64,000 nt of DNA from the UHGV virus genome UHGV-0147904; one strand, 5' to 3'. The DNA is from a virus. The translations under genes and the position numbers were made by a program. Shown here piece after piece: positions 7,501 through 57,818 of the stretch (position 1 is its first letter; each line of letters starts with the position of its first letter). The notes below the pieces were generated by a model. That model saw only the letters and a list, made by a program, of their open reading frames with translations, did not search any database and was not told the origin of the DNA.

Positions 7501-10500
7501 GATGAGCATGCACAGGATATGCTTTATGACTTCGTTGCCGCCGGACGCGTAGCCAGCGCAATGGACTCCGACTCCCACCGCAAAGAGGCCGCGCGTCGCC
7601 GGGTATTGTCGGAGTATTCAGATACCGGCACCGAAAAAGCAGAGAAGTATCCGTACTTTGAGGATATGGGCTTCGATAGTGTGATCGCTGACGAAGGTCA
7701 CAACTACCGCAATAGCTATAAAAATGGTCGCGAAGCGTCACAACTGGCCTATCTGCCCACCAGCGCGGTGGCGCAATCGGCGCGAGATATGGCAATTAAA
7801 AACGCGTACCTGATGAAAAAGAATGGTGGGCGCGGGCCGGTTCTCCTGACTGCAACGCCAGTCGTTAACACCCCGATCGATGCATACAACATGCTTTCTC
7901 ATGTTCTGCCGAAGGAATACTGGCAGAACATGGGGATCTACGGTCCTGATGACTTCGTTAAATTCTTCGGCAAGACCAGGCTGGAAACGGTACAGAAAAT
8001 TAGCGGTGAAGTTGAAGAAAAAATGGCGCTGGTGGGCTTTGAAAACCTTGATGCGCTGCGCGGTATATTCCATCGCTGGGTAACGCTTAAAACGGCGGAA
8101 GACGTTAAGGATACCGTGGAGATCCCGGAGCTGGACGAACACCAGCAGGATGCACCACTTACTGAAGAACAACTGGCGGCGTATGAAGAATTGCGTCAGC
8201 AGGCGGAAGCGGCGGCCAAAGCCAACAATGGCGTAACGACCTCGGTCAATGAAGACGGCGTGATTGAGCACGAGAAAGCCCGTCCGATCTTCTCAATAAT
8301 CAGGGATATGGACCGCGTATGTACTGACATGGACCTGTACTATCGCCGGATCACCTATCGTTTCCTGCCGGAGTACGCCGATGCGGTGCAGCAGCTGGCG
8401 GACAGTTTGCCTAAACAAGCCACCAGCGAAGACGACGACAGTGATGATTCAATCACGCAGCAATCGCAATACTCCCTGATAGATAAGGGCGAGTTTATTC
8501 AGTTGCAGGTTCCGGAAGCGTTCGAGCAGGAAGTGAATAAGCGCCTGGCCAGGTTTGGCATTGACGAACAGACCGTAACTCACCCCGTTACGCCCAAATA
8601 CGCGAAGCTGATTGCCACGCTGAAGGAGTTTTTCCCGGAAGGTAAGCAAATCATCTTCACCGATGAAAAAACGCAGCACCAGAAGCTCAAGCGCATTATC
8701 TGCAATGCTCTTAACCTTGAACCTTCAAAGGTGGGGATACTGAATGCTCAGACGGTTGCCGAGGCAGGTAAAACCGGTAAGAAACTGAAAGCGGTTAAAC
8801 CGCCGAAAGAGTTACCGGATGAACCAACAGATGCACAGATAGCGAAATACAACGAGCAAATGGCTCTGTATGACGCCTATATCGCGCAGCAAAATGAAAT
8901 GTCGTTGGGCGGTCTGGAAAAGATTGCAGCCGACTTCCAGGAGGGCCGGACTCCGATCATCATCTGCAACAAAAAGGCAGAGGTGGGTATCAACCTGCAT
9001 CGAGGAACGACTGACATCCATCATCTGACGTTGCCATGGACTCCAGCCAGTATTGCGCAACGAAACGGTCGCGGTGCCCGAGTTGGCTCCAACCGTGCAA
9101 GCGTTCGCGTTCACTACTACTGCGGCAAGGGTTCTTTCGATGAATACCGACTGAAGACGCTGAAGCGTAAAGCAGGCTGGATCTCCGATATCCTCCGTTC
9201 AGATAAGTCAGAAATGGAGAACGCCGACGCCAACGATATGATCGAAATGCAGATGTATACCGCTAAGGATGATGGCGAACGTCTGGCAATGATGCAGGTT
9301 CAAATGGATAAGGCGAAAGCCGCGCAACGCGCTCGCCAGAAAGAACAGGCTACTATCGACCTTCAGAACTACATCAAGGCGCAGCACGCAGCTGGTGAGG
9401 ATGTGGAGGTGCTTACCGCTGAATTAGAGCGAAGCAAAGCGGAACTTGAAAAGACCACCGCCGAGGTAGCTAAATTCAAACAGGCGGCAATGGCCAAGGC
9501 AGCGGATAACGCAGACTGGAAGGCACGCTGGGGGAGTGTCCATCACACAGACCGTATGTTGTTAGCACAGTATCGCGCGTCGTTGAAAAGCGCCATTCAG
9601 CGCAAGGCTAATATCTCTCAAGCCATCTCCCGCTATGAGAAATTATTGAACCGTACTCAGAAGGCCGCGACGGATATCAAACGCCTGCGCCCGCTGGTGG
9701 AGGATGCATTAAATAAAGGCATTCTGGATGTTGATCCTGACCTGGTTAACCATGCGAGTGAGTTCCTTGTTATCGGCGATCGCTCATGGCGTGTAGGCCA
9801 ATACTACGATTGTGCCGGTGATATCGTTCGCATTAAGTCGCTGGACTTCGACAGCCAGCGCGCAGACGTGGAGATCATCTTCACCTTCAAAGGCACCAAA
9901 TCTGGTAACTGGGATGTGAAGACGCTGGATAAACAGGTTGATGTAACTCCCGATGAAGATGCTGTTATGCAGAAAATCAGTGGTGGCGTCTCCATCGCCG
10001 GGATTAACGACATCGTTTCCTGTGACGATTTCTACCGTTTCCAGCAGCGCGGCATGATCAAAATCACTGACTCATACGGCGTTCAGACTACAGAGTCAGG
10101 CTATAGCATTGATTTTGTTGGTACCTATACGGACCCACTGAAGCATGCGGTTTACCCGGATCGCCGTGACGGCGCGCTGAAGTCGTCAATTGCAAAATGG
10201 GTGCTTGGTATGATGTCGGAAGGGAATAACCGCCAGATCCGTTCGGCAGAAGCATTCCTGGTTGAACTGTTTGGCTCCAATTATGGCGATGTAATCGCGT
10301 CATACGGAGATACGCTATCCCCTGAAGCAATTCAGGAGAAAATAGCGGATGCGATCGCCAGAATGCCGGAGAAAACAAGCCAGGGGGCTACTCGTAACGG
10401 GGATTCTGAACTTGAAGTCACCAATGCCATTTTCGGTACCAATGAGTTCCGGGCGTCAGATTATGAGATCACCACAGCACAGTTTGGCACCATTGGCATT

Positions 10501-54466: not shown

Positions 54467-55351
54467 ATGCCGGAAGAAAGTAAAGGCTTCCTTAGCGTTG
54501 AAGAAGTTGCAGGAAATACAGGAGAAATCCACAGCCTGAAGCCCAATAACAACAGCACTATACAACCCATCGCTTTGTTGCGTTTAGGTGTGTTTGTGCC
54601 AACCTTAAAATCTACCAATGTGGCGCTACGTCGCGGATCGTCAGTTACAACAAACACAACGAACGCAACTGAAGAACTATCAAGCCTCAAAATTGTTGAG
54701 CAGGAAGGCTATGAGGGAATTGAAATTCATGGTCCACGCCTGGATATGGATACTGATTTTAAGGTGTGGGTGGGCATAACCTCCGCGTTGTTTGACTATG
54801 CACCTGATGATGACGGTATAATCACCCTGCCATTCTCCGAGTTTGCCGATCGATGCGGCTATCCACGTAAGCGTCTTTCAAAGGCGTTCCGTAAAAGTAT
54901 TGATGACTCTCTGACACGCATTCAGCAGACAGTTGTCAAATTCCGCTTCCCGGCGGCAAAAGGTCATCTCAATAACATTAACGTCAACTTGTTGGCATAT
55001 AGCAGCCTGAATACCGAGCTTGATGTTATCGAGATCCAGCCGCAGAAACAGCTATCTGAACTTTACTATGTTGACTATAAGCGAATCCTGAAGCTGAAGA
55101 TGCTGGATAAACTAGGGCGCAAAGAGACAGCCAAGGTACTGTATACATTCTTTGAGGCTCTACCCGCCAACCCGGCACCTGTCAGCATTGAGCGCCTTAG
55201 AGCGAGGCTTAATCTCAAATCATCCGTTAGCGTGCAAAATAGCGTTATCAGAAAAGCCATGAAAGATTTGGAAGCTATTGAATATCTTAAATTTTCAGAG
55301 ATAAAAAACGGCAGGAAAATCGGCTTCCAGATCCATAAGCGCAATCCATAA
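54467..55351 (+). CDS. repA: RepA, iteron-binding replication initiator
   Basis: About 294 aa from Met MPEESKGF... (start uncertain); flanked by iteron arrays on both sides. Confidence 0.75.
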   Translation: MPEESKGFLSVEEVAGNTGEIHSLKPNNNSTIQPIALLRLGVFVPTLKSTNVALRRGSSVTTNTTNATEELSSLKIVEQEGYEGIEIHGPRLDMDTDFKVWVGITSALFDYAPDDDGIITLPFSEFADRCGYPRKRLSKAFRKSIDDSLTRIQQTVVKFRFPAAKGHLNNINVNLLAYSSLNTELDVIEIQPQKQLSELYYVDYKRILKLKMLDKLGRKETAKVLYTFFEALPANPAPVSIERLRARLNLKSSVSVQNSVIRKAMKDLEAIEYLKFSEIKNGRKIGFQIHKRNP

Positions 55352-55625
55352 TATTGACTATATGCGATAGCGAGAAGTTGACTATAGGCGACATTCGTTG
55401 ACGCTGGTGGATTTTTGCTGGCGTCAATATTCTGCAAGTCGCTATTGAGATGGCTTTTAGGCCCATTTCATCGCGTATAGTCAACGTTTCTCCCGACAAT
55501 ATCTTACATAGTCGATCTTTGGTGGAGTTAAATCGACTACAGTCAACTTTTGACTGTAGTCACATCGCGCATAGTCAACTATTCACATTAACCTTCGCGC
55601 ATAGTCAACATTTGCGCGACTCTCA
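55350..55625. repeat. Downstream iteron array in both orientations (incA-like copy-number control locus)
   Basis: About nine copies of the ttgactatacgcga core (tattgactatatgcga, gttgactataggcga, tcgcgtatagtcaac, tcgcgcatagtcaac and others). Confidence 0.75.
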
Positions 55626-55643
55626 TCAAGCAGTGGTATTGAT

Positions 55644-56453
55644 ATGCAAGAAGAGAAACAACACTACCTCTACGTTCTGGTGCCAGAGAACGGAGATACT
55701 TTTAAAATCGGCATTTCATGTGGTCCATTGGCACGGTTTAAAGGGCTACAAGTGAGTCCCGATTTTGCGCTTTCACGGGTCTATCGTGGTACGCGTTTGG
55801 CAATGGTTAATCTTGAGCGGGCTTTACACGCAACCTTTTTCCCCTGGAATGCGCCGTGGGAGAAAAGCGCCGGTGGCGGGCATACTGAATGGTTTACACG
55901 AGAGTGTCTTGATAAGGTTTTGGCTCATATCGAATATCTAAATGATATGTGGGGAGGGATTCTCGAGCGCATCAAGTCGAATGATTTACTTCAGCGTCCA
56001 GTAGATGCTGCTTGCTCTTTCGAAAAAGAGCTGGATGTTACTTCTATCGTGACTTTCAAAGATGACGCAGGAATGAGGGACGTGGCTTATGTCTCCATAT
56101 CTGGCTATGAACCGGACGCGATCCGCGCTCAATGTGAATTGCTGAAAGCAATGTTTATGCTTCGGACTAAATATCCCTGGGAGACAGGGCGGGTGTGCTT
56201 CCCTATGGAAGAGTTAACCGCCACCATTGATTCCCAGCTTTACCACGATAATCCAGAGAAGTTTTTTAGCCTTTTAGCCGGTAATGGGCTTAACTGTGTG
56301 TCCGGGCTGGGGCGAAGTAGAATCCAACATGCCTCGCTCTTCGGTCCCTTCTTTTACGATCGACACGGGTACTTTGAGGCTGAACTTCCGGCGCTTACGC
56401 GTGCTATAGATACTATCGATTTCGAACGATTATTCGCTGCTCTTAGCAAATAA
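55644..56453 (+). CDS. T5orf172/GIY-YIG-like domain protein inserted between incA and parA
   Basis: 269 aa; N-terminal YLYVLVPENGDTFKIGIS and later GGGHTEWF resemble the T5orf172 (GIY-YIG superfamily) signature; own terminator downstream. Confidence 0.5.
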   Translation: MQEEKQHYLYVLVPENGDTFKIGISCGPLARFKGLQVSPDFALSRVYRGTRLAMVNLERALHATFFPWNAPWEKSAGGGHTEWFTRECLDKVLAHIEYLNDMWGGILERIKSNDLLQRPVDAACSFEKELDVTSIVTFKDDAGMRDVAYVSISGYEPDAIRAQCELLKAMFMLRTKYPWETGRVCFPMEELTATIDSQLYHDNPEKFFSLLAGNGLNCVSGLGRSRIQHASLFGPFFYDRHGYFEAELPALTRAIDTIDFERLFAALSK

Positions 56454-56460
56454 CACTGAT

Positions 56461-56485
56461 GCCCCTGAACGGGGCTTTTTTGTGC
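56461..56485 (+). terminator. Rho-independent terminator
   Basis: gcccc tgaa cggggc followed by ttttttgt. Confidence 0.65.
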
Positions 56486-56621
56486 CCTCCTTGTAACTCT
56501 CAATCGTGCAAAATGAACCAAACATGCAGAGAATGCTATGTACAAGCATCTGTGCATACATTATTATTTTATGCAGCATTTTTAAGTAAATTCAAAAATA
56601 CAGCATAAAGGATGACTTTCG

Positions 56622-57818
56622 ATGAGTGATTCCAGCCAGCTTCACAAGGTTGCTCAAAGAGCAAACAGAATGCTCAATGTTCTGACTGAACAAGTACAGT
56701 TGCAAAAGGATGAGCTACACGCGAACGAGTTTTACCAGGTCTATGCGAAAGCGGCACTGGCAAAATTGCCTCTACTGACTCGAGCGAACGTTGACTATGC
56801 CGTAAGTGAAATGGAAGAAAAGGGTTATGTTTTCGATAAACGCCCTGCTGGCTCTTCAATGAAATATGCGATGTCAATTCAGAACATCATTGACATATAT
56901 GAACATCGCGGAGTGCCAAAATACCGGGATCGCTACAGCGAAGCGTATGTGATTTTCATCTCCAATCTTAAAGGCGGTGTGTCAAAAACTGTATCGACGG
57001 TTTCTCTGGCGCATGCAATGCGTGCCCACCCTCATCTTCTGATGGAAGATTTAAGGATTCTGGTTATTGACCTTGATCCGCAATCTTCAGCGACGATGTT
57101 TTTAAGCCATAAACACTCTATTGGTATCGTAAACGCAACATCTGCACAGGCTATGTTGCAGAATGTAAGCCGTGAAGAGCTGTTAGAGGAGTTTATTGTT
57201 CCTTCTGTTGTACCTGGGGTTGACGTTATGCCTGCGTCGATTGACGATGCCTTTATTGCATCCGATTGGAGAGAGCTGTGCAATGAGCATCTACCGGGTC
57301 AGAACATCCATGCTGTCCTGAAAGAAAATGTGATTGATAAGCTGAAGAGCGATTATGACTTTATCCTCGTTGATAGTGGTCCTCACCTTGATGCCTTCCT
57401 GAAAAATGCTTTGGCCTCGGCCAATATACTGTTTACACCTCTGCCGCCAGCAACTGTCGATTTCCATTCATCGCTTAAATACGTTGCCCGCCTTCCTGAG
57501 TTGGTAAAACTCATTTCGGATGAAGGCTGCGAGTGCCAGCTTGCGACTAACATTGGTTTTATGTCCAAGTTGAGTAACAAGGCAGATCATAAGTATTGCC
57601 ATAGCCTGGCTAAAGAAGTGTTCGGTGGGGATATGCTCGATGTCGTCCTCCCTCGCCTTGACGGTTTTGAACGCTGCGGCGAGTCTTTTGACACTGTTAT
57701 TTCAGCTAACCCGGCAACGTATGTTGGTAGTGCTGATGCATTGAAGAACGCGCGAATTGCCGCGGAAGATTTTGCTAAAGCAGTTTTTGACCGTATTGAA
57801 TTTATCAGATCTAACTGA
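56622..57818 (+). CDS. parA: ParA, Walker-type partition ATPase
   Basis: 398 aa beginning MSDSSQLHKVAQRANRMLNVLTEQ...; deviant Walker A NLKGGVSKT; matches P1 ParA length and N-terminus as recalled. Confidence 0.95.
   Translation: MSDSSQLHKVAQRANRMLNVLTEQVQLQKDELHANEFYQVYAKAALAKLPLLTRANVDYAVSEMEEKGYVFDKRPAGSSMKYAMSIQNIIDIYEHRGVPKYRDRYSEAYVIFISNLKGGVSKTVSTVSLAHAMRAHPHLLMEDLRILVIDLDPQSSATMFLSHKHSIGIVNATSAQAMLQNVSREELLEEFIVPSVVPGVDVMPASIDDAFIASDWRELCNEHLPGQNIHAVLKENVIDKLKSDYDFILVDSGPHLDAFLKNALASANILFTPLPPATVDFHSSLKYVARLPELVKLISDEGCECQLATNIGFMSKLSNKADHKYCHSLAKEVFGGDMLDVVLPRLDGFERCGESFDTVISANPATYVGSADALKNARIAAEDFAKAVFDRIEFIRSN

Follow-up and report, generated by a model that had tools for sequence, protein, structure and literature searches.

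The virus genome UHGV-0147904, of which a stretch of 64,000 nucleotides (the window) was analysed, carries between repA and parA a gene for a 269-amino-acid protein with a T5orf172 nuclease domain. This gene is the right-hand member of an alternative replicon cassette (iterons, repA, iterons, gene), which extends from ~54270 to ~56520 of the window and is flanked by P1-type DNA. In at least four lineages, with three iteron types among them, such cassettes consistently include a diverged T5orf172 gene. In E. coli and Salmonella, P1-like phage-plasmids commonly carry extended-spectrum beta-lactamase (ESBL) and mcr genes, and the origin of their replicon types (IncY, 'p0111') is unexplained. In the reading that we favour, and which we hold to be evenly balanced between right and wrong, the gene encodes a free-standing, selfish homing-type endonuclease, possibly one directed at rival replicons. 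The nuclease would cut the corresponding region in another P1-like element of the same cell, and the gene would be copied in with its cassette.

The replicon cassette and its exchange among P1-like elements

An earlier reading of the letters alone (the sequence-only reading) had taken the iterons beside the gene for the incA array of P1, and the gene for a second accessory insertion into the plasmid maintenance region. Comparison with P1 by blastn revises both points. Homology to P1 breaks at 54269 and 56520, RepA of the window is 40% identical to RepA of P1, and the iterons differ (TTGACTATACGCGA in the window, ATGTGTGCTGGAGGG in P1); hence, the whole block is an alternative cassette from a different Rep3 replicon and not an insertion into the incA-par interval of P1. 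The part of oriR with the DnaA box and GATC lies to the left of the 54269 break and is common to the window and P1. Identity of the searched window segment to P1-like phage-plasmids of the RCS47, SJ46, JL22, and phi456 group is 98-99%, whereas the match to reference P1 covers only Ppar and parA, from query position ~2221 on. Matches to the iteron core TTGACTATRCGCGA number 21 in the window, against 9.5 expected, and all those with at most two mismatches fall in the replicon region.

Three other P1-like lineages carry homologues of the nuclease gene at the corresponding place between repA and parA, with 44%, 26%, and 26% identity to the window protein. These full-length relatives, P0004 (locus L003), P0009 (L004 and L005), and P0011 (L006), all sit between parA and a Rep3-type repA with iterons, on P1-like contigs of about 90-96 kb or on a 14-kb fragment. 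The iterons are of the window type in L003, of the P1 type in L004, and of the type GGCTACTGNATGCTAC in L006. Amino acid identities to the window for RepA, the nuclease, and ParA are 84%, 44%, and 89% in L003; 40%, 26%, and 90% in L004; and 48%, 26%, and 57% in L006. Between L003 and L004, the corresponding values are 39%, 27%, and 100%. Both flanks of the L003/L004 pair are 97-98% identical in nucleotides, and the stretch that begins with the first origin iteron and ends 63-84 bp beyond the nuclease stop codon is unalignable. The replicon specificity module (iterons, RepA, iterons) is thereby exchanged as one cassette between nearly identical backbones, and the pair shows a clean, recent swap with the nuclease gene inside, at the right edge. 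Outside canonical P1/P7, the cassette has the nuclease gene at its edge.

Within the cassettes, the gene evolves in a modular fashion. The nucleotide alignment of the window with L003 runs through repA, the iterons, and the N-terminal domain of the nuclease, breaks off at codon ~105, and picks up again only at Ppar; the C-terminal domain is the most diverged piece between these two cassettes. When the L004 and L006 cassettes are compared, the N-terminal domain of the nuclease is the sole piece that can be aligned in nucleotides (76% over 231 nt).

Canonical P1 is without the gene, as the sequence-only reading had expected. In reference P1, a non-coding spacer of about 190 bp separates incA iteron 1 from Ppar, and comparison of this spacer with the window, L004, and L006 genes (blastn with word size 7, tblastx) gave matches to iterons and Ppar only and no remnant of the gene. 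IncY plasmids with a P7-type par also have no gene between repA and parA, which lie 400 bp apart. L004 combines P1-type iterons with a RepA that is 83% identical to P1 RepA; therefore, the P1-type replicon exists both with the nuclease gene (L004) and without it (P1). The p0111-like replicon likewise works without the gene, because the non-P1 phage-plasmid CP042620 has none downstream of its p0111-like repA. This 93.7-kb E. coli plasmid (L007, CP042620.1) has a p0111-like RepA (76% nucleotide identity) and similar iterons, with tail genes directly after. Since its neighbouring genes are not P1-like, the p0111-like replicon type is common to different phage-plasmid families.

The open reading frame (ORF) that the sequence-only reading placed between the iterons and parA is present as described (Table 1), and the two peptides it quoted, YLYVLVPENGDTFKIGIS and GGGHTEWF, occur in the translation. 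It can be taken for a real gene rather than a chance ORF because it scores above the Pfam gathering score for T5orf172 and has syntenic homologues in other P1-like elements at the identities given above. The distance from the end of the last iteron (55608) to the ATG is 35 bp, somewhat more than the ~20 bp first estimated. The terminator proposed ahead of the parA control region was recovered as a hairpin with a T-run, which begins 7 nt past the stop codon and has a fold energy of -11.9 kcal/mol (z = -2.5 against shuffled sequences). This terminator-like element would close the transcript of the nuclease gene, or of repA and the ORF, upstream of Ppar. Upstream of the nuclease ATG, a consensus scan found no sigma-70 promoter, manual inspection found nothing convincing, and no convincing Shine-Dalgarno sequence was seen; transcription by read-through from repA is only a guess. 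An Rfam scan of 54000-57000 gave no match.

Domains of the nuclease protein

The N-terminal domain matches Pfam T5orf172 (PF10544) with 27.5 bits against a gathering score of 20, over profile positions 2-87 of 101. The likeness to T5orf172 and GIY-YIG proteins seen by eye in the sequence-only reading thus holds under a hidden Markov model search. The related MUG113 model stays below threshold, and PHROG 681 ('endonuclease') matches the protein at 5.5e-9. The modelled domain has the GIY-YIG alpha/beta fold and matches SLX1 GIY-YIG nucleases. Among 10 homologues (22-44% identity), L9, Y10, K21, G23, R31, S44, E58, L61, G79, and E82 are invariant, and F20, H62, T81, W83, and F84 are at least 90% conserved. 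By motif position, Y10, K21-I-G23, R31, and E82 would be the GIY-YIG tyrosine, the K/Y-I-G strand, the arginine, and the catalytic glutamate. E82 holds the same motif position as the catalytic glutamate of the nuclease Odn, which was mutated as E180A (PMC8263062). Since the motif residues correspond to GIY-YIG catalytic positions, the N-terminal domain is predicted to be an active nuclease.

The C-terminal domain is the hypervariable part of the protein, with 32% identity between the window and L003 and 14-19% between the window and L004 or L006. Modelled alone, it folds as a winged helix with a predicted local distance difference test (pLDDT) score of 78 and a predicted template-modelling (pTM) score of 0.75, and it matches only winged-helix DNA-binding domains. 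This winged helix is probably DNA-binding. Nearly all of the top 50 Foldseek matches are iteron-plasmid initiators, including the WH1 domain of MSBI1.176 (the best match, with a probability of 0.99 and an E-value of 8e-3), RctB, RepE54, and pPS10 RepA. The structural scores are weak, with a template-modelling (TM) score of about 0.4 and no Foldseek match at E ≤ 0.001; the match to the WH1 domains of Rep initiators is weak but consistent, and we treat 'Rep-WH1-like' as a lead. Profile-profile comparison of the domain with five RepA proteins (hhalign) gave no sequence similarity (probability 0.2%). A profile search of the Protein Data Bank (PDB) returned a spurious coiled-coil match only, and an NCBIfam search returned no match.

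In a profile search of 1.84 billion representative proteins, the C-terminal domain was found only in the P1-like relatives P0004 and P0009; P0011, which the search reached through its N-terminal domain, was added by alignment, and about 140 further proteins match the N-terminal domain only. The C-terminal ~150 amino acids thus have no sequence relatives outside P1-like elements in these searches. The 212-amino-acid protein P0012, from the phage contigs L012 and L013, joins the same T5orf172 domain to a C-terminal MarR/ArsR-like winged helix-turn-helix. Its gene adjoins two HNH_3 genes, and this part of the uncultured phage's genome has many genes of the homing-endonuclease type. The distant relative P0013 comes from a short contig; P0014, whose N-terminal domain is distantly related, is encoded in a chromosomal island, next to Mrr_cat and WYL genes. 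The contexts of P0012, P0013, and P0014 gave no general link to Rep genes. A tblastn search of PLSDB for the P0009-type gene matched the window-type gene alone, over its N-domain (~40% identity), a scan of GTDB species representatives found no further relatives, and a search of IMG/VR found the window-type allele only.

Distribution, natural disruption, and other features of the region

The window-type gene occurs in 401 PLSDB records (408 places) from Escherichia, Salmonella, Shigella, and Klebsiella, nearly all at 95% identity or more. The window-type repA occurs in 399 records, so that linkage is near 1:1. The gene has one place per PLSDB record, in a single slot, and no spread to multiple sites or paralogues was found.

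Fifty window-type loci were sampled (43 from IMG/VR, 1 from GTDB, and 6 from GenBank). The repA/parA context is present in 49, and the fiftieth ends at the contig end. The nuclease ORF is intact in 39 loci and cut by a contig end in one. A frameshift or premature stop is present in nine loci, from at least five independent events: a frameshift leading to a stop at codon 55, W68*, W103*, S112* (five loci), and Q228*. One further locus (L060, 3295-5057) has a 1.76-kb insertion, which may be an insertion sequence (IS), in place of 230 bp of the gene (window 55937-56167). Overall, 10 of the 50 copies are disrupted, by at least six independent events. Truncated or frameshifted forms of the protein also make up the clusters P0003 (229 member sequences), P0007, P0008, and P0010. 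In L040 (IMG/VR), codon 228 of the gene is changed from CAA to TAA.

Polymorphism differs sharply from that of the neighbouring genes. Synonymous and nonsynonymous polymorphic sites number 25 and 37 in the nuclease gene, 44 and 5 in repA, and 56 and 1 in parA. The pairwise ratio of nonsynonymous to synonymous polymorphism (pN/pS) is 0.19-0.36 for the nuclease gene and 0-0.02 for its neighbours. The gene is weakly constrained, and it is dispensable for maintenance because 10 of 50 copies are disrupted. It is not simply dead, because the open frame and the catalytic motifs persist in homologues down to 26% identity.

The databases already contain the ORF, with its family assignment. RefSeq names the product 'GIY-YIG nuclease family protein' (e.g., RCS47 YP_009624912), one phage record names it 'T5orf172 domain-containing protein', and its PHROGs entry, phrog_2876, is listed with function unknown. 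Venturini et al. (2019; PMC6906374) noted pSvP1 only as having '2 orfs inserted between repA and parA'. Within the library that could be searched, we found no paper linking P1-like elements with GIY-YIG or T5orf172. The linkage to the replicon cassette and the Rep-like domain appear not to have been described.

Table 1. Features of the replicon region; positions are those of the window.
Feature	Position	Strand	Details
Left boundary of the exchangeable replicon cassette	54269..54286	.	P1 homology (96.7%) stops directly ahead of the first origin iteron; blastn against P1
Five origin iterons, incC equivalent	54287..54385	+	Core TTGACTRTRCGCGA, 21-bp spacing
repA, Rep3-family initiator, SJ46/RCS47 'p0111' type	54467..55351	+	294 amino acids; Rep3_N and Rep3_C domains; ORF list, Pfam
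Downstream incA-like iteron array	55354..55608	.	+ copies at 55354 and 55378; inverted (-) copies at 55471, 55533, 55565, and 55595
T5orf172 gene	55644..56453, stop codon included	+	ATG start, 269 amino acids; ORF list, Pfam, homologues
N-terminal T5orf172/GIY-YIG-fold domain	55665..55898	+	Amino acids 8-85
C-terminal domain, winged-helix fold, hypervariable	56022..56450	+	Amino acids ~127-269
Intrinsic-terminator-like hairpin and T-run	56461..56485	+	GCCCC-TGAAC-GGGGC, then TTTTTTGTG; fold energy
Right boundary of the cassette	56520..56523	.	P1 homology (99.1%) resumes ~16 bp upstream of the Ppar -35; blastn against P1
P1-type par promoter Ppar, outside the cassette	56539..56567	+	TGTACA, 17 bp, TATTAT; P1 annotation
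parA, P1 type, conserved right flank	56622..57818	+	ORF list, Pfam, P1 comparison

Several further observations concern the replicon. The longest repA ORF starts at TTG 54431 (306 amino acids); database annotations and homologues favour ATG 54467 (294 amino acids). One iteron copy, with one mismatch to the core, lies inside repA at 55071-55084 and is kept in the diverged L003 replicon (7609-7629); it might take part in autoregulation or handcuffing. A degenerate iteron after the nuclease gene (inverted repeat I2, 56495-56525) was considered and rejected, as it has more than three mismatches to the iteron core; the nearest core match downstream of the gene, at 56791, is at chance level. The terminator hairpin with ~45 bp beyond it (56455-56520) can be aligned with ~6000-6070 of L006, despite the low identity (26%) of the two nuclease genes. 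The aligned segment may have a function in both loci or mark a recombination joint. L003 and L004 are without this hairpin. Just to the left of the replicon, ppfA (53140-53562) is a second fast-evolving gene: PpfA is 49% identical between the window and L003/L004, and the neighbouring genes are 67-90% identical. PLSDB labels this P1-like Rep3 replicon 'IncHI1B' by MOB-suite (L008-L011), whereas the literature and PlasmidFinder use p0111; the label looks like a mis-typing.

Interpretation and relation to known systems

We favour a homing-type nuclease because a free-standing nuclease, a modular, diverging DNA-binding domain, an intergenic position at a block edge, presence/absence polymorphism, and frequent decay match the T5orf172 homing genes (PMC10448857). 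Presence varies among close relatives at one locus, with the gene in L004 and none in P1 or the IncY plasmids with P7-type par. Degenerate natural alleles account for 10 of 50 copies. The setting of the N-domain relative P0012, with two HNH_3 genes next to it, also speaks for homing. A nuclease domain is joined to a separate domain, whose DNA binding is suggested by the structural model. With an N-terminal T5orf172 catalytic domain and a fast-evolving C-terminal winged-helix domain, the protein would be a two-domain free-standing endonuclease. Its gene travels as the right-hand passenger of a cassette ordered as origin iterons, repA, control iterons, nuclease gene, and terminator. When two P1-like elements share a cell, the nuclease would cut the allelic repA-parA region of the rival, in which the gene is absent or another cassette is present. 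The break would be repaired from the nuclease-bearing element, so that the rival would acquire the gene and, through co-conversion, the replicon cassette next to it.

Several points weigh against this reading. No target site could be derived from the sequence. The gene keeps to a single slot and has not spread to several sites, unlike the T5orf172 genes in ICP1. Its location at the edge of the block argues only weakly for a causal part in the exchange, because any gene between the control iterons and Ppar falls inside the variable block. The ~1:1 linkage to repA (401 against 399 PLSDB records) and the proportion of intact copies, about 80%, fit a mildly beneficial accessory function. The AlphaFold2 (AF2) models are of moderate quality (pLDDT 72 and 78, from four sequences). 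Expression of the gene is predicted only, as its upstream region has neither a convincing sigma-70 promoter nor a convincing Shine-Dalgarno sequence.

The strongest rival, which we nevertheless think unlikely, is a nuclease directed at the origin of a competing replicon, in analogy to Odn. The Rep-WH1-like C-terminal domain would bind the iterons, or the iteron-bound RepA, of the competitor, and the T5orf172 domain would cut; the rival would be destroyed or excluded with no gene conversion. The Foldseek search with the C-terminal model, which returns almost only iteron-plasmid initiators, speaks for this possibility, as does the position of the nuclease gene next to repA and iterons in four cassette types. 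A precedent exists in Odn, a T5orf172 domain fused to a copy of RepA_N, whose cutting needs iterons (PMC8263062). The structural scores are weak, however, and winged helices are very common. The C-terminal domain has no sequence similarity to RepA (hhalign probability 0.2%), whereas Odn is 42% identical to RepA_N, and the two domains stand in the opposite order to those of Odn. Iterons are shared by the window and L003, whose RepA proteins are 84% identical, yet the C-terminal domains of the two nucleases are only 32% identical; thus, the domain does not track the cognate iteron. Frequent pseudogenes also speak against a strong benefit. It is similarly doubtful that the C-terminal domain truly descends, with strong divergence, from the WH1 domain of a Rep initiator. 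In that case, the cassette-encoded nuclease would be targeted to the iteron/RepA complexes of other P1-like elements, or to their allelic repA-parA junction, and would destroy these elements or convert them to its own replicon type.

A domesticated accessory of the replicon is improbable to a greater degree. Here, the WH1-like domain, by interaction with RepA or the control iterons, would tune copy number or handcuffing or insulate Ppar, and nuclease activity would be lost or irrelevant, as in CapR. CapR, the PLE repressor, derives from T5orf172 homing endonucleases. In four cassette types, the gene always lies between the control iterons and Ppar, linkage to repA in PLSDB is tight, and the gene has no promoter of its own that we could find, so that co-transcription with repA is possible. 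The C-terminal fold matches Rep WH1 domains, and the WH1 domains of RepA/RepE-family Rep proteins mediate dimerisation. Against such a role, the catalytic-motif residues are invariant in distant homologues, and the replicons of P1 and P7 and the p0111-like replicon of CP042620 work without the gene. Moreover, of the 50 natural copies, 10 are broken, whereas strict purifying selection acts on repA and parA across these 50 loci. The existence of such natural knock-outs makes a housekeeping or regulatory role unlikely.

We give little weight to a decaying relic that has no present function and is kept only because it lies between two essential modules. High nonsynonymous polymorphism, common stop alleles, and the lack of a clear promoter or ribosome-binding site would suit a relic; the open ORF, the catalytic motifs conserved across lineages down to 26% identity, a pN/pS of 0.19-0.36 (below 1), and the 39 intact copies of 50 do not.

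The sequence-only reading had also pointed to a defence association, which found no support: no PADLOC family (PADLOC-DB v2) matches the window protein, P0004, P0009, or P0011 at E ≤ 1. T5orf172 and GIY-YIG domains do occur in defence contexts, P0014 adjoins Mrr_cat and WYL genes on a chromosome, and P1-like elements carry many accessory defence genes, but an effector of anti-phage defence or superinfection exclusion against unrelated phages is scarcely probable for a lone gene with no partner or sensor, which sits in a fixed slot of a replicon cassette rather than a variable accessory hotspot and shows weak selection and many pseudogenes.

To our reading, three aspects appear new: the gene as a constant passenger of an exchangeable replicon-specificity cassette, the lineage-restricted winged-helix domain, which is possibly Rep-WH1-like, and the population signature of a dispensable selfish gene. 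If the nuclease acts by homing or by attack on rivals, it would offer a mechanism for replicon-type turnover, incompatibility outcomes, and mosaicism in a clinically relevant family of mobile elements. A replicon-directed nuclease would be a driver of IncY/p0111 mosaicism in P1-like phage-plasmids and a plasmid-world counterpart of the ICP1 Odn. Nuclease genes at genetic-exchange boundaries, known from lytic phages, would then extend to plasmid replicons. Should the gene prove to be a selfish passenger in decay, the finding would be ordinary, yet it would still correct the reading as an insertion into P1.

Among known systems, the T-even Seg proteins (e.g., SegF and SegG) are GIY-YIG homing nucleases with intergenic genes. 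They cleave the corresponding allele in a relative that infects the same cell, and flanking markers are carried over with the gene, which is seen as marker exclusion and co-conversion. This is the mechanism proposed here for the replicon cassette. The Seg proteins differ in being classical GIY-YIG enzymes with other DNA-binding modules, and their mechanism has been shown experimentally, whereas that of the cassette nuclease is inferred.

The maintenance region of P1/P7 (oriR-repA-incA-parAB; annotation of Lobocka et al., NC_005856) has the same layout, host-factor part of the origin, Ppar, parA, and parB, with flanks at 96.7-99.1% identity. It has no gene between incA and Ppar; in the window, RepA, both iteron sets, and the extra gene form a different cassette.

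The putative T5orf172 homing endonucleases of ICP1 and other phages (Barth, Dunham and Seed, 2023; PMC10448857) also combine a T5orf172 catalytic domain with a separate, modular, and rapidly diverging DNA-binding domain. Their genes are free-standing beside essential genes, at the boundaries of recombination blocks, their presence varies between close relatives, and frameshift and stop alleles are frequent (PMC10448857). The DNA-binding part is a winged helix here and a CapR/DUF723/DUF4397 zinc finger there; a single copy occupies a fixed slot in the replicon cassette of a phage-plasmid here, in contrast to many paralogues in a lytic phage genome there. Homing is putative in both.

Odn (ICP1 Gp88) carries its DNA-binding domain at the N-terminus, with 42% identity to the RepA_N of its target (PMC8263062); in the protein described here, the domain is C-terminal, with a weak, fold-level likeness to Rep3/RepE-type WH1 and no sequence similarity to the neighbouring RepA. 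Odn joins T5orf172 to a domain resembling a plasmid-type initiator (PMC8263062), and the present protein may do so too; both would act in a conflict of replicons with RepA and origin swapped as cassettes.

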